DNA of 58,092 bases, the filler included, from Sphacelaria rigidula (lineage: Eukaryota), in NCBI GenBank assembly GCA_964200075.2. It is 6 parts of 6 records of this genome, joined end to end, with 100 filler letters (N's around TTAATTAATTAA, not from the genome) between each part and the next. Parts side by side here need not be neighbours in the genome. Positions count along the whole stretch, not along the records: positions 9,701 to 19,300 come from CAXNAA020008124.1; 5 more parts are not named here. One strand, given 5' to 3'. Below, piece after piece: positions 5,799 to 48,495 of the stretch. The position numbers were made by a program, and so were the translations under genes. Positions within the stretch are counted from its first letter, which is position 1. Every line of letters starts with the position of its first letter. The notes under the pieces are model-generated. The model did not search any database, was not told the DNA's origin, and saw only the letters and a list, made by a program, of their open reading frames with translations.

Positions 5799-8450
5799 AC
5801 CCACAACCACCCGGCCGGCCGCAGGCCCTTTTTTTTTTTACACTCCTTTTTTTTTAAGCAACGTGCGGNNNNNNNNNNCCCTCCCTCCGCCCTCCGCCCC
5901 CTACAGAGAAACCAACGGGGCCGGAGATTATACTTTTTTTGTACACCACCTTTTTTGTACAACACGACGGGATGTCTGCAGCTGTGGGCGACAAAACCGG
6001 AGGCTACACTACGGGGATCGGACGCGCTGTCCGTGGTCTTATGACATGGTTGGGCGACTCCCAAGCCGGGGATCTCCGCAACATACTTCTCTCGGCGGTG
6101 CTGGTTGGCAACATCAATGCTGCTGGGGTACCACCTAGATCTACCAAGAAATCGATGTTTCTCCGTTTCGGGTCCATCCAGGACGCGTTCCAGCGTCCCC
6201 CCCCGTGGGGAAAAGATCCAAGATCCTCAGCAGTCTTCGTAGATGAACGAAGGTGGCCTTGAAGATGTAGCCAGCCACCTCCTCTACTCCCTTCGTATTC
6301 CCAGCGTAGTCCGCCGGTACAAACCTCGTATCTATTGTGAGCATACAGCAACGAAAATAAGAGGAAATGCAGACAGTGGACCTCTACAACCTCCACGCAC
6401 AGTCTACGTTCCCCCGTTTGACAGCCGCCAGCCATCGGTGTCATATTACACATTACATTTTTCGGGGACACACGCACGTTTCATGAGCACTACATTCGCA
6501 CAAACCACTAGTCCGCTACCTCACCTCGGCTCCAACTCGCGTGCCCGCGCACAAGACTTGCCTTTGCCACAGAAGCCAAATACTTCGCGAGACTCCTGGA
6601 AGAGTTGTGTGGATACTCGAACATACCCCCCTTGACCTTCTGACAGTGCATCAGCGGCGTGCTGAGTCCAGCATCCACGTATCGTGCCGTTCATTTTCTG
6701 TGGAGGTCCAACATTCGTCTCCGTCTTTCGAGGTGCGTCAAGAATAAATGATACTACAGGGGGTACTTCATAGCATGCCCATGCCCAGTCCTCGGGCGCT
6801 CGTAGAATAGTAAGACGTCGAGCCCTTCATCGGCCTGCGCAGACATCGGGGCAGATACGTGCATAATCAACCGTTTCACCGCCCGATACGTCACGATCAT
6901 GACAGATGGAGTACTGCGGGTCCTGCATCGACACCCAGCCCGCAACCACGGTCAGCACGCCACAAGGTGACATACTGTTCAACATGGATGTGGCGTCTCC
7001 TTCCTACATTTGAACACCTTCCGGCGATGTATACCACACCACCCCGTAGCACCCGTAGCACCCGAAGGGGCTAATGCTGTCTATGTACCTCAGTGGTCGA
7101 CGGGGTCTGTGCAACACCGCGATTAGTGAAGGCGTCATGCCCTGCGGGATAAAAGTAATTATTGATATGAGCCCAACATAAGCGCGCGTAGATTCCTATA
7201 TTGTGGTTGTGTTGACAAGAGGATATCATCCGTATTGTCGACCTGTACCCCATATAACACCCCTTTCCCCTGATTTATACTGAAATGTGGCTTGGCAGTC
7301 AAACGGATACGGCTAGATGTTCCGCCACTACATTCGACAAATGAAGACATGGAGTCACGCTGAGTACCGGGGCGTGGGACGAGTCAAGCAGCAAGCGACG
7401 TACCTCTCTCTGAGATACTCCAGAGCCACCGGAGGCGGATTTCTCGCGATCTTCAACCCGCTTCTGCTCCGGCTCTCAATTTCTTGCACTGGTAAAGGGT
7501 GTTGGTCGACTGTGGCCGGCGCCAGCTGCCGTTCCTTCGCGCGGAGTGTTGGGCGCGAACAGGAATCAAGTTATATCCGAAGCTTCCTTCGCGAACCGTA
7601 CGGCAAATTCAACAGTCGTCGCGCACAAGAGAGGGATCCGGCAACGTTGGCGTTCGGCCAGCACAAGGCATTCGCGCGATGGGGCCGCGGGCAACGTGGC
7701 ACATCAGCAGTACGGTGTGGTGAATGTATGGCGGGTCCGCTACCGAGAGGGGCCGATGAAGCCTCAGCCCCCAGTTGGTACTGTACGTGCGGTACAACAG
7801 TCCACTACAGTACATTTGTATTGCAAAGTCGGACCATTGCGCAAGGTAACAGTGCAAACCGTATTCTGTCCAGAAAATATATGCATCGTCGAAAACAAAA
7901 GCGCCGAGTGAATGAAGTGTGTGACAAGCAGTACAGAAAATATGATAGCAAATCAATACGATACAATACGAGAGTGCATAGGGCAAGGCGACTCGTTTCA
8001 CCGTTATACAGGGTCCTCTAGCGTGCAACAAATCCTGGGCGGGTTCAGGCAGATAAAACGTGCCGTTCTCGATGCACCGTGGATCGATCGTCCCCAAAAT
8101 TTGCACAGCATCGGTCGAGTATATCACAAAGCATGTGGCGCCGCTGGTTCTTCAACCCACACCGAGGAACTCGAATACACAGGCTGCACGTGAGGGGTAT
8201 GCGGCTGCGGACTGCTGCGCCCACTTCACAGACATGCAACTGGAGGCAACGCTCTCGCCACTCACCGGATGTATTGAAAAGTTTCCACTTGCCCAATTGC
8301 TTCCACACGTTGTCGCAACAGCCTTGTGCACTCCTCGCGTTCTTCCGTCCGCTGGTGCTGCGGCGATAGCTAATAATGTAATGTGCAACTACGCCCGGTC
8401 TGCGGTGATTGCTGCTGCCATGTTCGAAAAATCCCCAATCTGGAGGAGAG
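5305..8450. repeat. About 140-bp inverted repeat pair (5305-5450 and 8313-8450) bracketing about 3 kb of decayed, coding-like DNA
   Basis: ccgtagaccgggcgtggttgcacatcacatcattagcgatcaccgcagcaccagcggacggaagaacgccaggagtacacaaggctg matches the reverse complement of the 8320-8405 region; the ORFs at 5378(+) and 8388(-) give near-identical peptides (MHITxLAIxAAPADGRTxGVHKAV). Confidence 0.75.
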
Positions 8451-9099
8451 TGCAGTGTTTCGCCGGGGATTTCTTTTTTTCATAGCGAGACAGACGCCTC
8501 CGCGAGAAACGGTGGATGATGGCAAATATCCTGATTTCGCCCCGAGCTCCCGCACACCTTGTGCCTGCAGCTGCGGACCTCGAAGCATCGCCCAAGTGGA
8601 AGGAGTGGGCTCGAATACGGTGGAGGTGTATTGGTATACTGACAAGCAGGTCCTCTCGCGAGTTGCACTGATAATGGTGCTGTCTGCTTCGAGCATTTGC
8701 AGGATCCGTGCAGCCTGAGGCGAACATCACCCCCCCCCCCCCTCGCACCTCCCCCCCCGCCCCCAGACCGACCACCCGCCCCCCCACACCCCCCCGGGAC
8801 AGCCCNNNNNNNNNNTCTCCCGTGCTGGGCGCAGCTGTTCCAGGTGCCGTGGAGCCGGGGGCGAACACCCCCCCCCCCCCCCGTCGAACCTCACCTCCGG
8901 CGTCATGACAGAGCACAGCGCTCGCATGACGCCACCGGTAGAGACCAGGAGGATGTTTTTACCGTCTAGAGAGGTCAATCTTTCCATAGCAAAAGGTCGC
9001 GTTGAAATCCATCGATGCTTCAAATGAAGCGACGTGACTGAAGTGTGAAAAAAAATAAACTTTTCTCCGCACCAGTATATGGGCCATCTCAACTGCCTT

Positions 9100-9600: not shown

Positions 9601-9700
9601 NNNNNNNNNNNNNNNNNNNNNNNNNNNNNNNNNNNNNNNNNNNNTTAATTAATTAANNNNNNNNNNNNNNNNNNNNNNNNNNNNNNNNNNNNNNNNNNNN
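9601..9700. other. Artificial contig linker (N44-TTAATTAATTAA-N44)
   Basis: Identical 100-nt spacer with a core that puts stops in all six frames; recurs five times about every 9.7 kb. Confidence 0.97.
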
Positions 9701-9983
9701 GCCCCTCCCCTCACTACTACTGTTCCGGGCCCTGTCATCCAACACATTCCAGGACTACAGCACCTACGGGGATACGCGTGACGGTGAGAGTGCAGAGCGA
9801 GTGCTGTCCGGCCGTGAGCCCACGCTGTTCGTGTGTGATATATGTGTGTGTTTGTGTGTGTGTATCTTGTGTGTTTTGCCTCCCGGACAGGAGTGATTCT
9901 TAGTGTGACTTCATGTGCAGCCAAACCCCCGGTCTTTGCGCTGTTCTACTGGGTGATGGATCGCCCCTGCCTTCTCACTGCAT

Positions 9984-10200
9984 TGTATTGCGTGAGAGGA
10001 CCGCGTGCTTAGAGGACCGCATCGGAATTGCAACATCCCCATTGCTGGGGTCAGGGTCAGGGTTAGGGTTAGTGTTGGGGTTAGGGTCAGGGGCATGGTA
10101 CCTCCAGGGACTGACCCGATTGGTTTTGAAAAACGTCGATCTTGAGGTATTTGGGACCACGGCGCGGTCCTCCAAGCACGCGGTCCTCTCACGCATTACA
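9984..10200. mobile_element. 217-bp MITE with 37-bp TIRs and internal telomere-like (TTAGGG/TCAGGG) repeats
   Basis: tgtattgcgtgagaggaccgcgtgcttagaggaccgc (9984-10020) versus the reverse complement of 10164-10200: 2 mismatches. Internal ggggtcagggtcagggttagggttagtgttggggttagggtcagggg. Confidence 0.8.
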
Positions 10201-10898
10201 GGGTGACAAACAGAGACGCCGTCCTTTCAGTCAGGAGTCTGTTGACACGAATAACGACGTGTCTTGTGGCGTTCCAGTCTAGGGAGGAATGATGTTCACG
10301 TGTCCAGTTTTTGAAGGACGTGACGAGGGGTGTCAGGTGTAACTCGTCGCGCGGCGAAACACTGAAATCCGTTGTTTTGAAATAGGACGGGTACTCGATC
10401 TTGGAATCGATCGGGACCTCAGCTCAAAAGTTACCTGGCCCGAGAGGTAAGATCGCGACGCGCCTGAGCGGTACTGGCGTCATTCGTCAACCCGTCCGGG
10501 TCATGGAAGCATCGAAGTCGCTGGCGTAGGATGTGACCCCCACCCGCCGTGTAGGTGAAGGTTTTGCAATGAGAGATGGTCGACACACACCCGTATTGAC
10601 GAGGGCGTTGAGCCTATAATGCGTGTTGGGACCGCGCGCTTTCTTCAGCGCATCGTGGACGATTTTTTACACCTCTCGGTCTGGTCAATACCTGCGATGA
10701 CCGCGCTCATGACTTCCACCCCAACAATAACCCTTTTCAGGTGAAGGAAGCATGCGGTCATGCCACACACCACAGAGTCACAGAGCCTCTGCGTTGTGCC
10801 TGGCGAGCACAGAGATGACCGCCGTTTTTCACTTTCCTTTCGGTATCGATTGACCCACAGAGAGCGATCGTCTCGTGGGAGTTCACCGGGTGGACAGG

Positions 10899-13800
10899 AT
10901 GTTGTCGACGAAGAGGCTGTGCGGATGCGCGGCCGGGATCATCTTCTGCTTGGCTCTTTTCGCACGTTCAGCTATAGCAGGTGAGTCGCGCACTTTTTGT
11001 CGCGAATTTGACGGCATTTTGTCGACTGTCGATGTAGGCGTGAGCAAGGTGCTGGATCGCGAACGGCACACATGAGTGTCGGATGTTGTCCAAACCCTGG
11101 ACGTCGATCCCGGCGCTTGGTTAGAGTCCACCTTTGCGGCGCTGACTCCGCTGACGCCTCCGGCGTGCTCTTACGGCGTTTTGTGTTCCCGGCGCATGCA
11201 TGGCCGGGCGATTTTCAGCGCCCGAACCCGATTCATGTTCTTGATCCCACCACCGCCAGGACCAACGGCCGAGGCGGTGGCACTGCGGGAAGAAGGGGGA
11301 CCGACGGCCCTGGCTCCGGTGTCTTTTTCTGGAGGCTCCTCAACACGAGCATCAGGGCAAGGTGAGCCTCTAGGGAGGGTGAGGAGGTTTGGTTGAAAAC
11401 TCTGGTCGTTGCCGTGTCGTGGACGAGTATCGATGGCGCGATCATGCACCTGGCGTGGTCGAGGAGCTGCTCGACGTGGGTGCCGCCGCTGACGAGTGCC
11501 GCCGGTATCGTGTCCCTAGTCGAGGTCACTCCGCTCCGCCGTCGTTGTTGCATCGCACCTCCAGGTGAACAGGATGCCAGAATCCTCCGAAGGAAACGGC
11601 GCAGGAGGGGCAGAGGCAGGCGGAGAAGAAGAAGGGGTAGGAGGGGGCGGAGGAGACGTCGACGTGGGCGCAGAGGGCGAAGATTCCGTGGTGAGTGCAC
11701 CGCCGACCGGGCTAATATCCCGTGCGCCACGTGTTGAGCGAGGCTGATCAACCTGTCACAGCACCTGTAAACGAGGCGAATGACCCGTCAAAATACAACT
11801 CACTATCGTGGCCCGTGTAAAAAATACACACTGCTCAACTGTAAGTAGACACGAACAATCGGTTCAACTTGTGAACCCAGCTCTAACAAGAGAGCTCGCG
11901 GAGGCTGCACAGTGTTGGTTGAACACTTGTTTGTGCGAAAGAGAGGATGCTTGGAATTGCCGCTTTATCTGGGCGACACTTGAATCAAACACATGTAACA
12001 ATCGTTGGTTCCTCATGAAGGCAGAAACAGACTACAAGCTGATGAGCTTGCCTGAGGTGGGTCGCTTTGGAGATTAAATAGCGTGGGGCTATTTCACACT
12101 CATCAGTAAAACTAGAAAACTGTCCATCCAAACTGTCCATACTTGTGGACTCTCAGTACTCCACCCTTCAATACTCGGGCAATATGCTGACTCTCTGTAT
12201 ACGAGCTATACAGTACATGAGCTATTCATTATTCTACGATGAAAATCCCACACACTTCACTACCTCAGTTATTCGGACGATCTTCATTCTAACGATGAGT
12301 CGTTCCTGGTTTTCCCGCTAATCTCGAGTATGTAAATTCGCCGAACTGTCATTTACTGATCTTCCAACACCGTGCCGTAGCCAGCGCTGAAGCTAGCAGT
12401 GCGATTCGTCATCGTGTACCGCGCGTGTAGAGACGAGACGAGCGTCCCACACGTTCCGAAGATGCCGCCGAAGAAAAACGGTAGGTGGACGAGGTTGTAC
12501 CATATTTGTCGCAGTGGTGCGACACACAAAAACCTCTCGAGATTCATGCCTTGACCCGCGTTCGTTGCCCCCACGTCGACCCCGCGCCATGTTGCCGATG
12601 CGTGTGCGGGAACTCTGTCCGCGTCCCTCGCAGGAAGGATCAAGTTGCCTCCGACACCAACGGCGGCCCCGACCGCCACGCCGGCGCCGACAGCCACGCC
12701 GGCGCCGACAGCGACGCCGGCGCCGATTGCGACAACGCAGCCAACGCCAGCCCCGTCGGAGGAAGGCTTCATCATCCTTCCGATCCCTGGTGAGAGAGGA
12801 GTGAAGAATCAATCGTTTGTCCCACGGTGATGCCACGTGTCGCGACGAGTAGCGTGTAATTTGCGGGTTGCGGGAAAATATGATGCCACGCCACCGTCGA
12901 TCGGTGACTCTGCCTCGGCGACTCCTCCCGCAAGATGCTCCCGTGCCCAGTGACCCCGTTCGGCCCGGTCGCTCAGGGGTGTAGTCGTCCAGCCATCGCC
13001 CAGTCGGGGTGTACCGCGTGCTTGTTTTACACGACTGACATGGTGGAAATCCCCTTGTTCTGGGCCGACCGTGTCGTCATTGTCGCTTTCCATTCGCACG
13101 GTAGGAATCCCCGGGCTCGCGATCGGCGGCGGAATTATCCAAATAGCAGATCTGGTGGTCGGCCAGACCATTGTTGTCCTCCTGGTGGACGCGACTGGAG
13201 TCCCGGTTGGGCAGGTCACCGTCGTGGTGATTTTGAATCGAAGGCTGACGGAAACGACCGAAGGAGAGCAAGCCGCCATCTCAGCGGGGAGCGAGGCGTC
13301 CCGCGGTCTTCAGCTCCGGGGGGTGATCAATGTGAGTAACGTGGTGCCCACCGCTGGCTCACCATACGCCAACCATACGCCACGAGTATCTCGATGTCGT
13401 GTTCTGTCCCCCAGGAGCATGTCCTGTGGCCCTCGAGCATGGGTCGAGGCCATGTTGGCGGGAAGGCGTGTACAGGGTCTGATATTTGTGTCGCCGATAT
13501 CGTTGTCGTCGTGCACGTTTGCGCGTAGCATGGGCCGCGGTGCCACCTCTTCTCGTGGAAACCTTGATGGGGAGGACCCAGTACGGTCGCGAGCGTGAAA
13601 AGCAGGGCACAGGTCGGGTCGTCGTCGCTCCCGCTCATCGGTGTCAGCTATTGGGGACAGTAGCAGCCATCGCACTGCCTCTCTGATGGACACTGTTTTG
13701 GACTAGCCGAGCACGCCCGACGAAGCAGTGGGGAGACGATGATACCAACCCCGACTTTTACCGCCTCGCTCACGACTTGCCGTCGACCCGAATGCCGCTG

Positions 13801-14590
13801 TTGTTTTGTCCACGTATCGCAGGTGAGGATAGACATCGTGAGCGTGACGATCTACCGCCGGGGTATGCAGGTGGCCGAATCGAACCCCTTCTTGGTCGCG
13901 ACCGTCAATGGCCAGGTCGTCCTTCGCACCCCGCCCGTCTTTGGCACCTTCACTCCTGTGTGGACCCCGTCGCAGACATTCCCCGTCTTCTGCAGGAGCG
14001 CGACGCGCATCTGTGAGGTACAGCTGCTCCTGTTTAACGCGAACCCTCTTCCGACGCCGGCGCCAACCGCGGTGCCGAGTCCGACGCCAATGCCGTCGCC
14101 AGCCAACACTCCCGGGAATGGCGGTAACGGGCCCGGAAATGGCGGTAACGGGCCCGGAAACGGCGGTAACGGGCCCGGAAATGGCGGTAACGGGCCCGGA
14201 AATGGCGGTAACGGGCCCGGGAATGGCGGTAACGGGCCTGGAAACGGCGGTGACGCACCGGGGAATAGCGGTGACGCACCCGGGAATAGCGGTGACGCAC
14301 CCGGGAACAGCGGTGACGCACCCGGGAACAGCGGTGACGCACCCGGGAATAGCGGTGACGCGCCCGGGAATAGCGGTGACGCACCTGGGAACAGCGGTGA
14401 CGCACCCGGGAATAGCGGTGACGCACCCGGGAATAGCGGTGACGCACCCGGGAATAGCGGTGACGCACCCGGGAATAGCGGTGACGCACCCGGGAATAGC
14501 GGTGACGCACCTGGGAATAGCGGTGACGCACCCGGGAATAGCGGTAACACACCCGGGAATAGCGGTAACACACCCGGGAATGGCGCTTAA
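10899..14590 (+). CDS. Six-exon gene for a secreted low-complexity protein (about 486 aa): signal peptide, RXL sites, poly-Arg/Gly tract, PT-rich linkers, C2-like beta domain, Gly/Asn/Asp heptad repeats
   Basis: Exons 10899-10980, 11260-11361, 11565-11690, 12634-12789, 13105-13331, 13823-14590. All introns are GTGAG...AG, the phases (1,1,1,1,0) match, and the 1461-nt frame is open. N-terminus MLSTKRLCGCAAGIIFCLALFARSAIA is signal-peptide-like; ends in TAA at 14588-14590. Confidence 0.8.
14111..14587 (+). repeat. Coding 21-bp tandem array: 6x PGNGGNG, 1x PGNGGDA, 13x PGNSGDA, 2x PGNSGNT, then PGNGA
   Basis: cccgggaatagcggtgacgca and cccggaaatggcggtaacggg units; variation within each block is mostly synonymous in this frame. 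Confidence 0.95.
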
Positions 14591-17500
14591 CGGGCCGTAA
14601 ACGGTCTCGAATATCCGCCCACTCCACTTCGAGCAGTAGTACCGTAGTAGGTCTCCTCGCGAAGGTCCTGTTCGGCAAGCGCCAACGGTTTGATTTTCAG
14701 GAGCCTCCGCTGTGTCTTTCCTTGATTCCTGGTGCTGATGGGCGATGGTGGGTACTTGTTCCTGACCGGTGGTCCTGGGTAACTGCACATGTGACGAGAG
14801 ATGAAAATTCGGTGCTGCATGGTGGCCCCAAAAAACCGCAGCGATTTTATCAGGAGTACGTGTAGTGATGGTGCCTGCCTGCGTTTCGGTAGAGTCCTTT
14901 CCGAATGGGTATACGTGTGAAGAGAGGTGAGGATGCGTTGACTGGACGGATGTTGGTCGAAAATGTAGATGGTGGCTTGTATAGCTTAAGATACTGACGG
15001 GTGTTGATCGATAATGTAGATGGTAGCTTGTGTAGCGCAAGATCTGTGGTTGCCGTCACAGAGCAACTTGTGAGATTATAACTGACGAAATGTGTTCAAT
15101 GGGGCATTCACTCCCCCCAAACCCCGCCGCAGTAGCCCCCAGGTGTGCCAGATGATGCGTTGTATGGCCCAAGACGTGGGGATTGTCGTTGGATGATCAT
15201 TGGCGGTACTGTAGCAGAACATACAAGGAAGTCCCGCCCCCCCCCCCCCTTCGGACAAAATTGTCTCCTACGGTCGTGCCGGATGATACGTGGGACCCGA
15301 CTTTGATCATGGCAGTTGTCGTCATTGAACAACTCGTACGGTAGAAACTAATCGGATGCAGTCGACAAGCCTCCGTACCCTTTTCGTCTCGTGGCTGAAT
15401 GTTGCCGCCGGGGCCAGTCGTCGTGGAAACAGTGACGGTTCCACGTGGGTGTGCCATACTCGTCCACCTTGAGGGGACATGAGCTGGAGCGTGTCTGTTC
15501 AACGACGTGAACACGCGATTCATTGCGCTATAGATTTGTGTTACACGACAGTGTCCGAATTGGCTGCTACGTGGCACACGACCCGTGGTATACTTGGCCG
15601 AACTCACAGCTCGCACGCATCGGTTCTTTCATGCCTCGTCAAAACGGGTTCCATCTTTTTGATTATTGACGAGTGGGGTCCGAGCTCGCGTCCTCTTGAT
15701 GTTCCACAGCGAACATTGACTTGGACACCCGTCCGATTGATGAATCTGGAAGAAGAAAGAAGTCGAGTGTCGGTTTCATCAAGTTTTCACAAGGTGCAAG
15801 GACGGGAGGCCCTTCAATTTTTCTGGAGGAACAAACCAGGTCCACAGCAAAAAAAAAAGAGAGAAAGGCAACTGGAACATGAAAGGAAGCGAGAAAGGAC
15901 CCTTCACGTCAAAAACACGAAAAAAACAGCTCATGAAACATGAAAAAAGTCAAAAACATAGGACTGATACGAGGAAAAGGATTAGGTCCTACGAAATCAA
16001 AAGAAACCAGAACGGAATAGGGAAGAACAAATGGAATCTAGACTAGAAATGACCGGACAGAAAGAAAAAAGGACGAGGTCCTGAGGAGGAAATCCTGCTC
16101 CGAAGAAACGAGGCAAACAAATCGCGAAGGCGCCCCCCTCCCCCCGAAAAAAATCAAGATCAAACGTTGCAAGGGTCGGACCAATAATGATTCGTCAGGA
16201 AATTACTTGGTTTTAGTATGATTGGTCGACTCGTGACGAATCAATCCCTAGGCTTGATTTCAGCGTTGCAACCCAGGTACACGAAGCCCAGACCCGTGGA
16301 ATGGCGCAAAAGTTGCGTGGATAGTCCTTGGACCAGCGATCAACATGTTTCTCCCTTTTGGGCAATCAGGTCGAAGACATCGTGAACTTGGTGATTTTGA
16401 GTCGTGATGATTTGTCCTAACCGTGAAACGTTGTGAGGTGAGAAAATAAAGCCGGGAACGATACGTAGTAGATAACCGAGCTCATGATCAACGGAAAAAC
16501 ACGAGTGAAAACAGACCCGAAGAGAGTAGAAAAAAGTACGTACTGAACAGCTGTTCCAATAAAAAGAAAGAAACAGTACTGAACTACTGCTCATTACTAT
16601 ATATAAAAATAAAATACGAATACAAAGCGCTGCTCGCTCCTGTAATGCACCACAAAACAGTCTCCAGCTTTCCTTCGTACAACGTTCATGCTTTTCTCTG
16701 CTTCGCTCGCTCAATGCCATCGACTCGCTCGTCTGGGTCATTTGCTGGTGCTCTTCACTTATTGAAGACTCTCCGCAGTCTTCGTCAAATCACTTCTTTC
16801 GAAACGTTCACCGTCATCGAACACTTGTCGTCTATGCTAAGCGTCGTCAATATCCTCTCCGAATGCAAAACCTACGAGGAAACAAGTTCATAACATCACT
16901 GCGCGACAGAGGGACATGGCGTGCTCGGGCGGGATAGCATACTTGATGCCTTGGCTGGGTGGTGCAGATGCCAAAGGGCGTAGAACCCGTCCACACGGGA
17001 AGCATCAGGCTTTCCAGGACTCTGCTTCCTGGTAGCTTTTGACATTGCTCCATCCTGGGCCTTTGCTCGCTATTTCCAACCATTTTTTTTTGTTTTTTTT
17101 AGATTTGGACTCGCGACGGTGTTTCAGGGTGAGGAGGTGGGGTGTGGGGTTTTCAAAGGTTGGCGTCGCCCCGAGGTCTGGTGTTCAACCAAACTAGGCG
17201 GACCCGTCAGCGGTTGAATATCTCAGGTGGGGCAGGTACCGGTGTGTAGTTCGACCTATGGCGGACTATCTTGCGCGTACGTATTTTGTGTCCTCGCATC
17301 ACCACCTCCAGTCCGCATGCCGTCATGAGTCCTTGCCAACTTTCCATGTACCGTGTACTAGTGCTGCAATTTCCTGCCGTGGCCATCCCGACATTGATAT
17401 CTCACCTTCCGGATCCACCACCAGTTTTACCTCGCATAGGTACTATTCGCGCTGTTCTTCGAGAGGGCCCAGTCCTGCACTCGGTTCTGCTTCGCGAAGG

Positions 17501-17766
17501 TCAGCTTAGATATATGTGTGTTTTTGCGTCGACACGGCAACTCGGGGAAGGGAGCAGCGTGTCAAGCAATGTGCGCTTGGTTCAAGGGGCCAATGAGACG
17601 TGTCCCCACCTGACTTGCGAAGCTCTGACAACATATCCAGCACTCATCCTCCTGGTCTCACGACTGCGTTCTTACCGCGTGGGAGATCTGACGCTTCGGG
17701 GAGGATGCCTTCTTTCATTCACCTGCTCAAATGGGTGACTACCTCCACGCTAAACGCTTCGCCTCT

Positions 17767-17838
17767 GTTCCGCGAATCTTTTGAGGGACACAGCAAGTTA
17801 AGGTTCCGCGAATCTTTTGAGGGGCACAGCAAGTTACG
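17767..17838. repeat. 36-bp tandem duplication
   Basis: gttccgcgaatcttttgaggg(a/g)cacagcaagtta occurs twice, back to back. Confidence 0.85.
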
Positions 17839-18284
17839 CACATTCTGCAGGGGCACTGACTACCCCGTTGACTTGTTTTGACGGCTGCGAAAAATCAACT
17901 GGGGATCGAGAAGCGAGGTCAAGTGCCTGCAGATGCATGTGTATGTGAGCGCAACATTACCTCAATTGTTGGCTAGTTGATCACCTCGCCCCATGGGTCT
18001 ACCGCACGCGCCTACCTGATGGCCGTTTCGCGACCACTTGACCTCTTGGGCCTCCTGCATCGGCATGGCGGCACATCTTGCCTGAGATCTTTCGTGCGTG
18101 TTGAAGAAAGGGAGCGGTCCCGTATCGTGGAAAGGGAGGCGCCTACTGCTAATTTTTCGAGTGCTCGTCATTATTTTGGAACCGCCGGCAGCTCCTCCGC
18201 ATCGATTCCCAGGTATCGCTTTTATTTCGTACTCAGATCGCCTCTCACCCACCGTTTCGGCCGTCGTTTTTCCCCCAGGTCCAA

Positions 18285-19268
18285 CGGTTTTGTGGGGATA
18301 TCAGAAACAGTGGAAGAATTGCACAAACAGATAGACAAGGCGCACGAATACACTACTGTAGGCAATGGAGAGTGACAGCGAACAGCGAATGAGAGTGATG
18401 ACGAATGTGAAAATATGCGCGATACTCGTCGGTAATGAGGATGAGAAAAATACACTGGAGTTTAGGTGGAAGTGGGGAGAAGGGAACTGTCGATTCCAGA
18501 CTAATATACATACCTTGGCTTAAAGATCTCAAAACACTGTTCTTGGGATGCACAAATGAACAAGGTAGTATAAAAGGTAAAGTACAGATAGGAAGGATGA
18601 ACGTGATCCAGACACCAGGATTGAGATGTGTATCCTGACGAACTTGATCGTACCACAGCTGGAATATGCAGGAGGAGCATGGAAGTGGGACGTGAAATTG
18701 GTGACGCAAGCTAGAAAACAGTACAGAGAGCAGCAGCCAAGCAGATGTTTGGGTGCACGGACCTGCCGGAAAGATTAATTGATTGATTGGGTGATTGTCG
18801 CACTTCAACTGACCCCCCAGGGGTCTAGCCGTGGTCTCATGATAGACGTACCCACGAAAAACGAAACTGAAACACGCCCTGAGAAAAAGGGGAGCAGAAA
18901 AGAAAAGGATAACAGTAATCGGAAAGAGAAAGTTGATAGACAAACTACCTCTGTGGCAAAGCAGTCGAGAGCAGAAGTCATAAAGTGGCGCAATGTGAGC
19001 TGTACAAGGAGGAGCAACACGTGCTAGAGGGAAAAATGCGGGACGTGAACGAAGGAGGCATGGAATCGTCTGATGTATTAGCTACGTGAAATATGTTTGC
19101 GCAGAGTATGGGATAAACGTGATGAGCTATGGAAGAAGCGCAATGCGCGCCGGAATGTTGAACGTGTCTCTATATTACGAGTAGGAGCGGTGCTCCGTCT
19201 CGAAAGGGATGCGTGGTCAATGGTCAAACGACCAAGGCAAGCAACAAGTGAGTACGCCCCCCCTCAGA
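18285..19268 (+). mobile_element. Decayed LINE (RT C-terminal part and 3' end) with internal deletions and an inserted short repeat
   Basis: Colinear with the 24885-26254 copy (ggatatcagaaaca..., ctggaatatgcaggag..., gaagtaaacgaagg(t/a)ggcatg..., same 3' terminus); many stops and frameshifts. Confidence 0.8.
18775..18940 (-). mobile_element. Short retroposon-like repeat ending in AAGTGCGACAA-(TCAA)n, inserted in the LINE
   Basis: Reverse complement matches about 24520-24640 (gtacgtct...gaccacggct.ga.ccctggggg.tca.ttgaagtgcgacaatca). Confidence 0.7.
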
Positions 19269-19300
19269 TTCGATTGCACCTGTTCTCCCAAAGGGTCTCC

Positions 19301-19400
19301 NNNNNNNNNNNNNNNNNNNNNNNNNNNNNNNNNNNNNNNNNNNNTTAATTAATTAANNNNNNNNNNNNNNNNNNNNNNNNNNNNNNNNNNNNNNNNNNNN
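19301..19400. other. Artificial contig linker
   Basis: Same N44-TTAATTAATTAA-N44 spacer. Confidence 0.97.
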
Positions 19401-28999: not shown

Positions 29000-29099
29000 N
29001 NNNNNNNNNNNNNNNNNNNNNNNNNNNNNNNNNNNNNNNNNNNTTAATTAATTAANNNNNNNNNNNNNNNNNNNNNNNNNNNNNNNNNNNNNNNNNNNN
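29000..29099. other. Artificial contig linker
   Basis: Same spacer. Confidence 0.97.
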
Positions 29100-31994: not shown

Positions 31995-34100
31995 CAGCAA
32001 TAACTCCGCCTCCCCCGCCCGGTACAGTCAAGTTAAACATCTCCCCAACGCGTGCAGCGTATATGATACCTGCACATCCTCCATCCCTAACCTCGCCACT
32101 TAGATCACCGGAGCTCGTAGAAAGACGTACCTCCGCCCCTCCCGCCCAGTTGAATTGAGTCAATCATCTTGCAGCGTGAAGGTTACCTTCACATCCTCCA
32201 TCCCTGACCTCGCCTGCTTGATCACCAGAGCTCGCAACGACAACGCCTCCGCTTCCTCCGCCGGGTTCAGTTACGCCAGACATAGGCAACGCGTGCAGCG
32301 GTTGTGCTACCTGCACATCCTCCATCCCCAACCTCGCCTCCTTGATCGCCGCAACTCGCTGGAACAGCGCGTCCGCCTCCCCTGTCCGGCCCAGTCGAGT
32401 CGAACATCTCGCCAAGTCATGTAGCGTATGTGCTACCCGCATATCGTCCGTCCCTAACCTGACCTCCTCAATCGCCAGAGCTCGCCGGAACAACGCCTCC
32501 GCCTCTCCCGCCCTGTCCAGTCGAGTCAAACATCTCGCCAACGCGTGCAGAGTGTAAGCTACTCGCACATGCTCCGTCCCCAACCTCGCCTCCTCGATCG
32601 CCAGAGCTCGCCGGAACAACACCTCTGCCTCCCCCGCCCGGTACAGTTGAGACAAACATCTGCCCAACGCGTGCAGCGTATTTGCTACCTGCACATGCTC
32701 CGTCCCCAACCTCGCTTCCTCGATCGCCAGAGCTCGCCGGAACAGCACCTCTGCCTCCTCCACCCGGTACAGTTGAGACAAACATCTGCCCAACGCGTGC
32801 AGCGTATTTGCTACCTGCACATGCTCCGTTCCCAACCTCGCCTCTGCAATCACCAGTGCTCGTCGCAACAACGACTCCGCCTCCCCCACGCGGGCAAGCT
32901 GAGTCAAACATCTCGCCAACGTGTGCAGCATAAAAGCTACCTGCACATTCTCCGTCCCCAACCTTGCCTCAATTATGGCCAAAGCTTGCCGAAGCAACAA
33001 CTCCGCCTCCGTCAGGCGGTCGAGTTGGCTCAAGCATTTGGCCAACGCGTGCAGCGTATGCGCTACCTGCACATCCTCCGTCCCCAACTTCGCCTTCTCG
33101 ATCGCCAGAGCTCGCCGAAACAACTCTTCCGCCTCCACTGCCCGGTCCAGGTGAGTCAAACATGTGGCCAACGCGTGTAGCGTGTGGCCTACCCGCAAGA
33201 CCTCCGTCCCCAACCTCGCCTCCTTGATCGCCAGAGCTCGCCGGAACAGTGCCCCCGCCTCCCCTACCCGGTCCAGGTGAGTCAAACATCTGCCCAACGC
33301 GTGCAGCGTATATGCTACCTGCGCATCTTCCGTACCCAACCTCGCTTCCTGGACGGCCAGAGCTCGCCGGAACAAAGCCTCCGCCTCCCCCGCCCGGTCA
33401 AGTTGAGTCAAACATGTTGCCAACTCGTAGAGCGTATGTGCTAACTTCACATCTTCCGTCCCCAACCTCGCCTCCTCGATCGCCAGAGCTCGCCGGAACA
33501 TCGCCTCCGCCTCCCCCGCCCGGTCCAATTGAGTCAAGCATCTGCCCAACTCGTGCAGCGTATAAGCTACCTCCGCCTCCCATGTACCCAACCTCGCCTC
33601 CTCGATAGCCAGAGCTCGCCGGAACAATGCCTCCGCCTCCCCTGCCCGTTCGAGTTGACTCAAACATCTGCCCAACGCGTGCAGCGTATGCGCCACCTCC
33701 ACATCCTCCGTTCCCAATCTCGCCTCCTTGATCGCAAGGGCTCGCCGGAACAGCAACTCCGCTTCCCCCGCCCGGTCGAGCTGAGTACAACATCCGGCTA
33801 ATGCGTGCAGCGTATGCGCTACCTCCACATCCTCCGTTCCCAATCTTGCCTCCTTGATCGCCAGAGCTCGTCGGAACTGCGCCCCCGCCTCCCCCGCCCG
33901 GCCCAGTTGAGTCAAATATCCTGCCAACGCGTGCAGCGCATAAGCCACCTCCACATCCTCCGTACCGAGCCTTGTCTCCTTGATCGCCAGGGATCGCCGG
34001 AAGCACACCTCTGCCTCCCCCGCCGGGTGAAGTTGAGCCAAGCATTCGGCTAAAGCGTTCAGCACTACTGCCACAGGTATCGCACTAGTCCCTAGCCTAG
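31995..34100 (-). repeat. 126-bp tandem TPR-coding array; the last ~3 units (31995-32290) are frameshifted or contain stops
   Basis: Unit EARLGTEDVQVAHTLHALGRCLTQLDRAGEAEALFRRALAI(K/E). The DNA periodicity continues past the ORF stop (e.g. GCG AGG TTA GGG ATG GAG GAT GTG CAG GTA TCA TAT ACG CTG CAC GCG TTG GGG AGA TGT TTA ACT TGA). Confidence 0.92.
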
Positions 34101-36075
34101 TCTCTGTGCTCTCCAGTGCCTGGCGAAGCAAGATTTCTGCTTCTTGAAATCGCCCAGATTCCGTTAGACATTCGGCTAGCATAAACCGCGCATCCGCAAT
34201 CTTTGCGGAGTCAGCATCGAGGTTCGCTTCCTCGGCTGCCTTAAGCGCCCGCCTAAACCACAGCTCAGCTTCGTCCACGCGCTCCAACGTATAGCAACAC
34301 GAACCAATCATGTGAAGAGATTGCACATACTCAGAAGTAGCAGCGGCTCGGCCATCAGACCTCAACCGCTCTTTTGCGACGTCTACCAACGGTTCCATCG
34401 AGCCCCGAAGACGCCGACTCTCCTCTTGATCTCGGTCTCTCACCGATACCTCACAGTGCCAGAGTGCAGTGAGAGAAGCATGCGGATTTGCCACCGGGTT
34501 GCCCTCGCATCGTTCCCATACTCCCCGCATCACGGCCTCAGCACCATGAAAATCACGGTTAATATTATACAGCTCTGCCGTAGCCTCTGCCGAGCAGAAA
34601 TACAACGGATCCGAGGAGTCTAGCGCAGACAAAGAAAAATCGTACGGGTGCAACTCACGTAACCCTTTCCCCCCTACGAGCTCAACCGCCTGCCACAGAC
34701 CCAGAAGGCCGTACACGTCCACTGACCGCACCACCTCCAAAGTGGATAAATGCGCCTGCCATCTTTTCACTACTTCTCGGCGAATATCCTCACGAGCATC
34801 CAGAAGAGTCCTCCTAGCGAATTCCGAACGAGCGTCGTGCATGCGGAACAGACCAGGCCCTGCCGCGGTGATGATCGCCCATCGCTCCAGAGCTGCCACC
34901 ACCTGCCCAGCTTGCTCCAGATCGTGCTCCGAGTGCTCGTGGCCGAATAACAACACGCAAGCCTCGTACACCTCAAAAGCGTGACCGCCTGGCATTACCG
35001 CCAAGGCAAGGTAAAGCCACCGGCTCTGCGAATCCTCAGCCCCAAGGCACTCGAAGCCAGCTCGGAGAATCGCGACACGTTTGTTCGCGCTGGGATCTCT
35101 ATCTGCGCTTACATTATCATCATCACCGAAGTGTTCTTCCTGAACCTTGTCCAAATGACGCCGGATGACGGCAATCGCCTTGGACCATGAGCCTCCATCG
35201 CTCCTCCCGTTTACCACTGTCCACCTTGCCACGGACTCCACATACATGGGCATGTAGTCGCACAGCTCAAACAACTCGTTTACAGGTTCTGGCAAACGAG
35301 CACCCTCGGGAAGCTCGGCGGCACTAGCCACGAGCGCCTCCGCCTCCTCCCGTCTCAACCGCTCCATCACGATCGCCTTGCCCCCGGCGTTATCTACCAG
35401 AACCTGATCTCGAGTCGTCAGCAGCACCCGCATGCCGGTCTTTCGCAGCTCCTGCACGACTTCCGGCTCCCACACGTCGTTCGCTACAAGCAGGCACTGC
35501 AGACCTTGACGCTTCAAGCACGTAAGCATAGCCTCTTGGACATACGCTGTGCCGTTCTTCGGTTCTATCGGCGACTGCCCGGGAGGATAGCCCCTGCTGT
35601 CCAGCACGTCCTCGTACACCCTCTGCGCAAGGCTCTGCATTAATCCTGGCAGTCGCTCGGCTGCATCTCTACCCACGTGGAGCCACACCACGCCGTCTGA
35701 GAACAGGGCTCGCACTCGACTCAGCCGCTCGAAAGCCTGCTGACGTGTCTCCCCGTCCAGGGGTCGGACCACACCTATCCCATGTCTAGCCACCATGGCC
35801 GCAGCGGTGGTCTTCCCTGACCCACTACCACCCACTAGCCCCACCATCCACGGGCTGCCCTCAGCGACAAAGTGATTGTGTACGTCGTCCATCACCGCGT
35901 TGCGCACGACATGCCAGCCCTTGGCTTTTGGAGCACCCGCTGGCACTGCAAAAAGCTTTGGTGACGACGGAGAAGTACGGGCAAGGAGAGTCTTCATGTC
36001 CTCCCGCGTTTCCCGAGTGTCTATCGCCATGCGATGTTGGTCCTGAACCACATGGTTCTGGACAGAACAAAACAA
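32164..36075 (-). CDS. NB-ARC-TPR (STAND NTPase, NLR-like) protein; large terminal exon, 5' exons uncertain
   Basis: Walker A GLVGGSGSGKTT, Walker B CLLVANDVWE, RNBS-B VLLTTR, MHD motif FRMHD, then about 2 divergent and about 15 near-identical 42-aa TPRs. Splice acceptor ttgttttgttctgtccag|AAC puts the exon start at 36057. Confidence 0.93.
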   Translation of the reverse strand: MFCSVQNHVVQDQHRMAIDTRETREDMKTLLARTSPSSPKLFAVPAGAPKAKGWHVVRNAVMDDVHNHFVAEGSPWMVGLVGGSGSGKTTAAAMVARHGIGVVRPLDGETRQQAFERLSRVRALFSDGVVWLHVGRDAAERLPGLMQSLAQRVYEDVLDSRGYPPGQSPIEPKNGTAYVQEAMLTCLKRQGLQCLLVANDVWEPEVVQELRKTGMRVLLTTRDQVLVDNAGGKAIVMERLRREEAEALVASAAELPEGARLPEPVNELFELCDYMPMYVESVARWTVVNGRSDGGSWSKAIAVIRRHLDKVQEEHFGDDDNVSADRDPSANKRVAILRAGFECLGAEDSQSRWLYLALAVMPGGHAFEVYEACVLLFGHEHSEHDLEQAGQVVAALERWAIITAAGPGLFRMHDARSEFARRTLLDAREDIRREVVKRWQAHLSTLEVVRSVDVYGLLGLWQAVELVGGKGLRELHPYDFSLSALDSSDPLYFCSAEATAELYNINRDFHGAEAVMRGVWERCEGNPVANPHASLTALWHCEVSVRDRDQEESRRLRGSMEPLVDVAKERLRSDGRAAATSEYVQSLHMIGSCCYTLERVDEAELWFRRALKAAEEANLDADSAKIADARFMLAECLTESGRFQEAEILLRQALESTETRLGTSAIPVAVVLNALAECLAQLHPAGEAEVCFRRSLAIKETRLGTEDVEVAYALHALAGYLTQLGRAGEAGAQFRRALAIKEARLGTEDVEVAHTLHALAGCCTQLDRAGEAELLFRRALAIKEARLGTEDVEVAHTLHALGRCLSQLERAGEAEALFRRALAIEEARLGTWEAEVAYTLHELGRCLTQLDRAGEAEAMFRRALAIEEARLGTEDVKLAHTLYELATCLTQLDRAGEAEALFRRALAVQEARLGTEDAQVAYTLHALGRCLTHLDRVGEAGALFRRALAIKEARLGTEVLRVGHTLHALATCLTHLDRAVEAEELFRRALAIEKAKLGTEDVQVAHTLHALAKCLSQLDRLTEAELLLRQALAIIEARLGTENVQVAFMLHTLARCLTQLARVGEAESLLRRALVIAEARLGTEHVQVANTLHALGRCLSQLYRVEEAEVLFRRALAIEEARLGTEHVQVANTLHALGRCLSQLYRAGEAEVLFRRALAIEEARLGTEHVRVAYTLHALARCLTRLDRAGEAEALFRRALAIEEVRLGTDDMRVAHTLHDLARCSTRLGRTGEADALFQRVAAIKEARLGMEDVQVAQPLHALPMSGVTEPGGGSGGVVVASSGDQAGEVRDGGCEGNLHAAR

Positions 36076-36153
36076 ATGGGGATATCGGGGAGGAACTGTT
36101 ACAAAAAAGGTGGGTCAACGCTAGGAGTTAAACTTCACCTTTCGGAAACTCAC

Positions 36154-38697: not shown

Positions 38698-38797
38698 NNN
38701 NNNNNNNNNNNNNNNNNNNNNNNNNNNNNNNNNNNNNNNNNTTAATTAATTAANNNNNNNNNNNNNNNNNNNNNNNNNNNNNNNNNNNNNNNNNNNN
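38698..38797. other. Artificial contig linker
   Basis: Same spacer. Confidence 0.97.
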
Positions 38798-48395: not shown

Positions 48396-48495
48396 NNNNN
48401 NNNNNNNNNNNNNNNNNNNNNNNNNNNNNNNNNNNNNNNTTAATTAATTAANNNNNNNNNNNNNNNNNNNNNNNNNNNNNNNNNNNNNNNNNNNN
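48396..48495. other. Artificial contig linker
   Basis: Same spacer. Confidence 0.97.

Follow-up and report, generated by a model that had tools for sequence, protein, structure and literature searches.

The window analysed here is a 58,092-nt stretch of DNA from Sphacelaria rigidula (GenBank assembly GCA_964200075.2), composed of six pieces of approximately 9.6 kb each. The gene of interest sits in the second piece (positions 9701-19300, from record CAXNAA020008124.1), and the element in question is its exon at 11565-11690 on the plus strand, which reads as a short peptide followed by a tract of 34 residues, 26 of them Arg. A sequence-only reading of the window had previously described this element as a protamine-like exon of a secreted protein.

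Gene structure and transcript evidence

The segment 11565-11690 proves to be a genuine coding exon; the spliced gene to which it belongs is a brown-algal gene of Sphacelaria type with at least seven exons. The plus-strand model comprises six coding-model exons, numbered 1 to 6 in the 5' to 3' direction, and a 5' leader exon. All of its borders are canonical, and its open reading frame (ORF) runs to 486 codons. The features of the gene are as follows.

9701..9783, plus strand: 5' leader exon, its 5' side cut by the piece boundary; without an ATG or a main-frame stop
10861..10980, plus strand: exon 1, the first-ATG exon (ATG 10899-10901, A at -3); residues 1-27, ending in phase 1 exactly after Ala27
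11260..11361, plus strand: exon 2, 102 nt; mildly acidic residues 28-61, which open the stretch ending in RIL
11565..11690, plus strand: exon 3, the Arg exon, 126 nt; residues 62-104, 75% purine
11579..11587, plus strand: R67-I68-L69 (AGA ATC CTC), an R-X-L tripeptide
11588..11689, plus strand: polyarginine tract, residues 70-103
12634..12789, plus strand: exon 4, Thr/Pro/Ala-rich linker and the start of a hydrophobic, beta-rich region
13105..13331, plus strand: exon 5, beta-rich region without a family match
13823..14590, plus strand: exon 6, the last coding exon, with a putative C2-like domain, a second Thr/Pro/Ala linker and heptad repeats; TAA at 14588-14590
14111..14585, plus strand: 21-nt tandem repeat, 22.6 copies with 93% matches, encoding GNGGNGP and then GNSGDAP units
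12462..12480, plus strand: candidate alternative first exon (ATG, MPPKKN; GT donor, phase 1), inside the 943-nt intron 11691-12633

To follow splicing, we used contigs that had been assembled from public sequencing runs and aligned on 9750-14060. The nine runs, X1 to X9, were guessed to be RNA and none is recorded as such; X1 and X2, which come from the same organism (organism A), were treated as RNA on the grounds that GT..AG joints in their contigs span every intron. The numbers of contigs that span each joint were as follows, with a slash between the last base of one exon and the first base of the next.

10980/11260: X1 6, X2 3, X5 1, X6 2
11361/11565: X1 5, X2 3, X5 0, X6 0
11690/12634: X1 1, X2 2, X5 1, X6 0
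13331/13823: X1 3, X2 2, X5 0, X6 1

The junction between exons 4 and 5 was bridged by one X6 contig, in which 12693-12788 lies beside 13104-13288. The leader exon has a GT donor at 9784, and the acceptor AG of the next exon lies at 10859-10860; in an X5 contig, the 21-nt loose end upstream of 10860 is an exact match to 9762-9782, which was seen in none of 100 shuffles. Summed word depth was 0-270 over the introns crossed, as compared to 10^4-10^5 over the exons. Word depth in contigs is a poor measure of expression and cannot rank the parts of a gene, a limit that applies to the depth over exons 3-4, which was below that of exons 1-2 and 5-6, and "abundant" is used below as an impression only.

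The Arg exon is included, on the plus strand, in several expressed variants. Besides the joints counted above, at least three variant contigs, which may be paralogues or alleles, carry one end of the exon spliced to its neighbour, either the 3' end to exon 4 or the 5' end to exon 2. In one variant, 40 letters are replaced at the end of exon 2 and the joint then falls at 11563; in two others, 4 or 7 different letters lie at the joint of 11691 with 12639 or 12642; and one aligns solely from 11651 onward. The sequence-only reading had called for a check of whether the exon is included and had named constant skipping as the outcome that would overturn it; the contigs join the exon to both of its neighbours. 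A skipping joint, 11361/12634, was absent among the 15 joints listed, with 17 more unlisted, and this carries no weight either way.

Several candidates were set aside. Contigs of X5 (11619-11653) and X6 (11607-11643) were considered as orthologues of the exon; they have long loose ends on both sides and were taken as unrelated low-complexity matches. A minus-strand gene (a 184-aa ORF, 11233-11787) was rejected because every joint reads GT..AG on the plus strand. The candidate alternative first exon at 12462-12480 could in principle yield an isoform without the signal peptide and without the tract. It lacks support: its donor was unused among the joints listed, and an X1 contig runs unspliced over 12396-12638 with a depth of 31.

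Composition and reading frame of the Arg exon

The exon is flanked by cctccag upstream and gtgagt downstream, so that the borders proposed earlier for this symmetric 126-nt exon, an AG before it and a GT after it, were confirmed. In the phase-1 reading, with one base carried over from 11260-11361, it encodes G-EQDARIL-RRKRRRRGRGRRRRRRGRRGRRRRRRGRRGRRFR-G. The 34-residue tract (11588-11689) contains 26 Arg, 1 Lys, 6 Gly and 1 Phe, and its longest run of Arg is six; the earlier count of 26 Arg and 1 Lys after RIL in this frame is thus correct to the residue. No other stop-free window of 34 amino acids, in any of the six frames of the 58-kb window, reaches this density of Arg. The runner-up, with 22 of 34, is an off-frame (+1 shift) reading of the following linker exon (12651-12760, plus strand), and Arg-rich frames alone are therefore no evidence of coding. 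Arg-rich ORFs in this genome can shadow Ala/Pro/Thr coding, and such frames arise easily in GC-rich low-complexity DNA.

The frame of the exon was fixed by its context. It is spliced directly to 12634-12789, and the frame then runs through exons 5-6 into a domain 91-97% identical to its counterpart in the closest relative, P0001, which fixes the Arg frame. The first ATG of the spliced mRNA (10899), preceded by at least 121 nt of known leader without an ATG, opens the 486-codon ORF, and this is the sole long ORF. The phase-0 frame, named earlier as a second outcome that would overturn the Arg reading, is Gly/Glu-rich as had been described; it can be entered solely at ATG 11574 and gives just a 104-codon ORF, which stops in exon 5. 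The remaining plus-strand frame contains stops, and the minus strand reads as Pro/Ser-rich or Leu/Pro/Arg-rich. The next in-frame Met downstream of the first lies at 13865.

The tract uses all six Arg codons (AGG 8, AGA 7, CGA 3, CGG 3, CGT 3, CGC 2), and codon position 2 is G in 32 of the 34 codons. Tandem Repeats Finder, at a minimum score of 30, detected no repeat in the exon, its five rows within 10800-14700 all lying elsewhere. The tract does contain two tandem 10-residue units, GRRRRRRGRR (G-R6-G-R2), which are identical as peptides and agree in just 18 of 30 bases and 1 of 10 codons. These results bear out the earlier statement that the exon is not a simple-sequence expansion. An exact tandem 10-mer arose in 236 of 20,000 shuffles of the residues, and the synonymous divergence of the two units provides modest, independent support for constraint in the Arg frame. 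We conclude that this is very probably a real exon translated as polyarginine.

Predicted protein, relatives and surroundings

The protein is predicted to be modular: a signal-peptide-like start is followed by a 42-aa stretch ending in RIL, the polyarginine tract, a linker, a beta-rich and C2-like part, a second linker and heptads. By inspection and hydropathy, residues 1-27 hold K5/R6, a hydrophobic core of 15-16 residues (mean Kyte-Doolittle value over 11 residues up to 2.7) and A25-x-A27 before Gly28, at the exon border. The charges that flank the core favour an N-in/C-out orientation, and the product probably enters the secretory pathway by way of a 27-residue signal peptide. Loose ends of X1 contigs at 10929 and 10935 (10917-10946) reveal an expressed variant of this region, in which we read the changes Cys8Tyr, Ala11Val and Ala12Ile; its core stays hydrophobic. 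Plastid targeting by a bipartite presequence was also considered. Ochrophyte plastid targeting uses an aromatic residue or Leu at position +1 of the cleavage site (the ASAFAP-type motif), and this reading was rejected, as the residue after A-I-A is Gly28.

Residues 28-69, a mildly acidic stretch of 42 aa, end in R67-I-L69. The tripeptide lies 40-42 residues after the predicted cleavage site at Ala27 and, together with R70, fits the pattern R-x-L-R; R.L patterns occur three times in the protein, as RIL and two more. Diatom biosilica-associated proteins typically have, after the signal peptide, some 30 residues (30 in silicanin-1) that end in R-X-L and are removed proteolytically, and silaffin units are described whose RRIL/RRNL ends are trimmed (PMC5525289, PMC4557024). 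By analogy, cleavage at RIL would have a precedent in diatoms. In a literature search for R-X-L processing in brown algae, all of the open-access matches listed concerned oomycete RXLR effectors or effector prediction.

Linker 1 (residues 105-146) consists to 83% of Pro, Ala, Ser and Thr, and an 18-nt repeat at 12651-12726 encodes its TPAPTA-type units; the corresponding share in linker 2 is 77%. The protein combines a predicted signal peptide with at least 50% Pro, Ala, Ser and Thr in these linkers and repeated AP/TP/SP, the pattern used to recognise arabinogalactan-protein (AGP)-like and hydroxyproline-rich glycoprotein (HRGP)-like sequences. After linker 1, approximately 160 residues are predicted to be all-beta, and their second half appears C2-like. 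The heptad array carries 14 Asp, with units that drift from GNGGNGP to GNSGDAP to GNSGNTP. The array of P0001 is similar and not identical, which indicates that the copy number varies.

Exon 6 appears to hold a divergent C2-like domain, the sole recognisable domain in the protein. The Pfam C2 profile (PF00168) scored 13.9 bits on this exon (E 0.066), below its gathering cut-off of 22 bits. P0001 itself has no Pfam family, and the C2 score of the fragment P0003 was 16 bits. A phmmer search against 1.84 billion representatives returned 23 proteins at E<=1e-3, most of them long multi-C2 proteins; among these were P0002 (E 1.9e-23, summed over 10 stretches), P0004 (2.6e-11) and P0010 (3.4e-07), which have 5-10 Pfam C2 domains (Pfam E 1e-80 to 1e-143 for P0002 and P0004). 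A protein-atlas feature search pointed to C2 clusters at 0.81, which we treat as a lead only. The AlphaFold2 (AF2) model of P0001, built on a 5-row alignment, is all-beta, with a mean pLDDT of 45.7 and a pTM of 0.31, too poor for a fold search, and comparison of the profile with PDB sequences gave no matches at E<=10.

Calculated charges show how far the exon alters the protein. With it, the protein has a pI of 11.2 and, at pH 8, a net charge of approximately +11; without it, these values are 4.2 and -15.

The closest relative, P0001, is a 296-aa partial "unnamed protein product" from Sphacelaria rigidula, the sole close one in the collections searched. Exon 4 matches its start, and identity to it is 91% over exon 5 and 92-97% over exon 6; P0001 begins inside the first linker and therefore lacks the Arg exon. 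P0003 and P0008 are short fragments with approximately 51% identity. In a search with P0001 among proteins of 162-518 aa, P0001 alone was recovered from 8000 scored. The exon within its read-through ORF (P0024, region 67-108) gave none at E<=10 among 8000 scored proteins of 67-216 aa, and the N-terminal part, sought in longer proteins, gave none scored among 79 candidates. None of 446 pattern matches in metagenome contigs was confirmed as carrying the N-terminus. A tblastn search of the window with the six exon peptides returned self-matches only, the best other match having an E of 0.098, and thus no paralogue in the window. The gene seems to be confined to one lineage. At the locus itself, 941 X1 contigs were aligned in four likeness classes, a number that may partly reflect assembly noise at high depth.

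The surroundings of the gene can be described briefly. The DNA of the window is eukaryotic in type, with GT..AG introns; a scan for bacterial promoters and terminators over 11400-11800 returned no sites, which is irrelevant in a eukaryote. Between the six pieces lie spacers (44 N, TTAATTAATTAA, 44 N), located at 9601-9700, 19301-19400, 29000-29099, 38698-38797 and 48396-48495, and contiguity across these points should not be assumed. Scaffold gaps of 10 N occur at 5869-5878 and 8806-8815, the latter flanked by long poly-C or C-rich runs (8720-8890). The leader intron contains an element at 9984-10200 that resembles a miniature inverted-repeat transposable element (MITE), with 37-nt terminal inverted repeats (9984-10020 and 10164-10200, 95% complementary) that enclose degenerate GGGTTA/GGGTCA repeats of telomere-like type. 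On this element, both X1 and X2 show an accumulation of many variant contigs and of joints flagged "opposite strands", which suggests a multicopy transcribed repeat. On the minus strand, 32164-36114 is one open frame of 1316 aa, in which an NB-ARC domain (E 1.5e-13) precedes numerous TPR repeats (TPR_12, E 1.3e-90); its architecture resembles that of candidate immune receptors described in brown algae and fits a brown-algal source.

Possible roles of the polyarginine block and comparison with known systems

The explanation that we favour, with a probability of roughly 0.4 for the whole of it, is that the Arg block would serve as a matrix anchor or crosslinker of a secretory protein. A secretory, wall-type protein is suggested by the signal-peptide features, the flanking charges and the two glycosylation-type linkers. 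The mature product would then consist of the leader ending in RIL, the Arg block, a linker of O-glycosylation type, the beta-rich and C2-like part, the second linker and the Asp-bearing heptads. Alginate and sulfated fucans are the main matrix polyanions of brown algae (PMC11468063). The Arg block could be a polycationic anchor or crosslinker in such a matrix, making multivalent contacts between its guanidinium groups and the carboxylates of alginate and the sulfates of sulfated fucans, and it may also pair, head to tail, with Asp repeats in adjacent molecules. If the leader were cleaved off at RIL, the block would come to lie at the mature N-terminus; the anchoring proposed here would not depend on such cleavage. 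We hold the anchoring mechanism itself tentatively, at somewhat less than even odds.

With a head of +27 and a tail of -14, the protein would be a block polyampholyte, which could condense into a coacervate-like assembly. In materials science, alginate or fucoidan is complexed with polyarginine or protamine. A bolder proposal is that the Sphacelaria lineage secretes an abundant block polyampholyte whose polyarginine head, as dense in Arg as a protamine and exposed by a leader removal of R-X-L type in common with the silaffin pathway of diatoms, forms a coacervate-like wall cement or adhesive with alginate, fucan and its own Asp repeats; this we regard as improbable as it stands.

Several observations weigh against a polyarginine anchor in the matrix. 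The main frame lacks a stop from 9701 to 14588 and is open through the leader to the boundary of the piece at 9701, so that translation could begin at an ATG beyond it. AGR codons make up 15 of the 26 Arg codons in the tract, as compared to 6 of 16 elsewhere in the gene. This codon bias, together with the purine richness of the exon, is explained equally well by selection and by a recent origin from low-complexity, purine-rich DNA. Protein and metagenome searches found no divergent orthologue that carries the tract. Moreover, C2 domains are mostly cytosolic and lipid-binding. Finally, a paired-basic tract is an ideal substrate for Golgi dibasic endoproteases, if these are present, and it may not survive secretion.

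In another explanation, the tract is a processing spacer that a protease of kexin/furin or R-X-L type, followed by a carboxypeptidase, destroys in the Golgi, so that an acidic protein is freed from its leader. The tract is almost wholly composed of paired basic residues, it lies between the RIL leader and the first linker, and the protein without the exon residues is indeed acidic, with its pI of 4.2; the removal of R-X-L leaders and the trimming of RRIL/RRNL ends in diatom wall proteins, cited above (PMC5525289, PMC4557024), point the same way. However, 2-4 residues suffice for known dibasic and R-X-L sites, far fewer than the 34 present here with their conserved-looking, periodic G-R6-G-R2 pattern. 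We consider a mere spacer unlikely. It could also be proposed that the exon is transcribed and never read as polyarginine, being leader or regulatory sequence ahead of a downstream start, a stall site, or part of the phase-0 Gly/Glu ORF. ATG 11574 does open phase 0 for 104 codons, the exon is purine-rich and of low complexity, and polybasic tracts can slow ribosomes. Against this stand the first ATG, in good context, with its 486 uninterrupted codons through the exon into a conserved domain, the loss of part of the C2-like domain that a start at 13865 would cause, and the synonymous divergence of the tandem units, which fits the Arg frame. In addition, endogenous yeast proteins with highly positive segments are reportedly not targets of ribosome quality control (PMC8102910). 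An exon not translated as polyarginine thus appears extremely improbable.

Two further explanations give the C2-like domain the leading role. In one, the secreted Arg head and this domain would together bind anionic membranes, either of epiphytic microbes or of the alga's own surface, in defence or lipid binding. The match of the exon 6 domain to bona fide multi-C2 proteins such as P0002 and P0004 is consistent with this possibility, as is the membrane activity generally known for Arg-rich peptides of at least 8 residues, and a lineage-restricted, variant-rich family (the 941 X1 contigs in four classes) is common for defence genes. Yet the Pfam C2 score falls short of its threshold (13.9 vs 22 bits), the Ca-binding loops cannot be assessed from an AF2 model with a pLDDT of 45.7, the long glycosylation-type linkers and the heptads look structural, and the many contigs may partly be high-depth assembly noise; we find a membrane-directed role rather improbable. 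The other holds that the protein is not secreted at all: the hydrophobic N-terminus would be a membrane anchor, or an internal segment of a longer protein that starts beyond the piece boundary, and the tract a juxtamembrane, cytosolic binder of anionic lipids before the C2-like domain. The order of hydrophobic segment, polybasic stretch and C2-like domain resembles that of synaptotagmin-like proteins, and both the frame open upstream to 9701 and the usual cytosolic location of C2 domains would agree with it. On the other hand, a core of just 15-16 residues with Met and K/R before it and A-x-A after it is typical of a cleaved signal peptide, the known leader holds no ATG over 121 nt, the charge difference between the near flanks predicts that the C-terminal side is translocated, and the tract lies 43 residues from the core and not beside the membrane. 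We regard a cytosolic tract as improbable as well.

The gene bears on several questions. Brown-algal walls are built from polyanions, few proteins that organise them are known, and this gene is a testable candidate for electrostatic wall assembly or adhesion, in which a single 126-nt exon, by adding 26 arginines, shifts the calculated pI from 4.2 to 11.2. It also bears on whether the processing of R-X-L leaders seen in diatoms extends to brown algae and, as a natural case of very dense polyarginine that is translated and apparently routed for secretion, on studies of translocation and of stalling at polybasic sequence. If the coacervate proposal is true, the protein would give synthetic polyarginine/alginate complexes a counterpart in nature and would rank as the first extracellular-matrix protein with polyarginine; a search of open-access text found no paper on an arginine-rich secreted brown-algal protein. 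These implications are limited by the apparent confinement of the gene to one lineage, and by the fact that its functions are ones that we infer.

The comparison with known systems starts from the term protamine-like, which held for composition and not for the rest. The tract is 76% Arg with short Gly spacers, and fish protamines are approximately two-thirds Arg. Protamines are DNA-condensing nuclear proteins, small and self-contained, that lack a signal peptide. The tract, in contrast, forms residues 70-103 of a modular protein of 486 aa, and the exon translation matched no Pfam-A family by hmmscan at E<=1, a protamine profile included. The exon can be described as a polycationic low-complexity module, in an Arg version, of a putative secretory structural protein. 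Oomycete RxLR effectors share with the protein a stramenopile origin, a putative signal peptide and an R-x-L-R pattern (R67-I-L-R70) approximately 40 residues behind it. They differ in that no acidic dEER-type stretch follows here, no WY-type domain is present and the alga is free-living; the pattern is expected by chance, because its context is Arg-rich. Proteins of the synaptotagmin and extended-synaptotagmin type likewise combine a hydrophobic N-terminus, a basic stretch and a C2-like domain. Unlike them, the present protein has a short core with A-x-A, the opposite predicted topology, Thr/Pro linkers, heptads and a C2 score below the Pfam threshold.

Plant extensins and Lys-rich arabinogalactan proteins have a secretory signal, glycomodule-like stretches of Pro/Thr/Ala/Ser and a basic module, as the present protein appears to have. 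The basic module of plant HRGPs presumably binds pectin, an acidic wall polysaccharide, a part that alginate or fucan would play for the algal module. The algal module differs in using Arg rather than Lys, in being far denser, in its lack of homology and in its lineage, and its glycosylation is putative. AGP genes in brown algae appear in published work. Finally, the diatom precursors with RXL domains (silaffin Sil1p, silicanin-1 and the cingulins) are ochrophyte secretory proteins with a signal peptide, a stretch of some 30-40 residues ending in R-X-L and then a strongly charged low-complexity functional region, and here, too, an R-X-L tripeptide closes a short stretch behind a putative signal peptide. 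The diatom proteins are rich in (modified) Lys or in Asn/Gln, and their substrate is silica, not a polysaccharide matrix; none of our searches detected sequence similarity to them. Judged from its modules, the predicted architecture appears closest to the diatom wall proteins with R-X-L leaders and to the basic hydroxyproline-rich glycoproteins of plants, with homology to neither.

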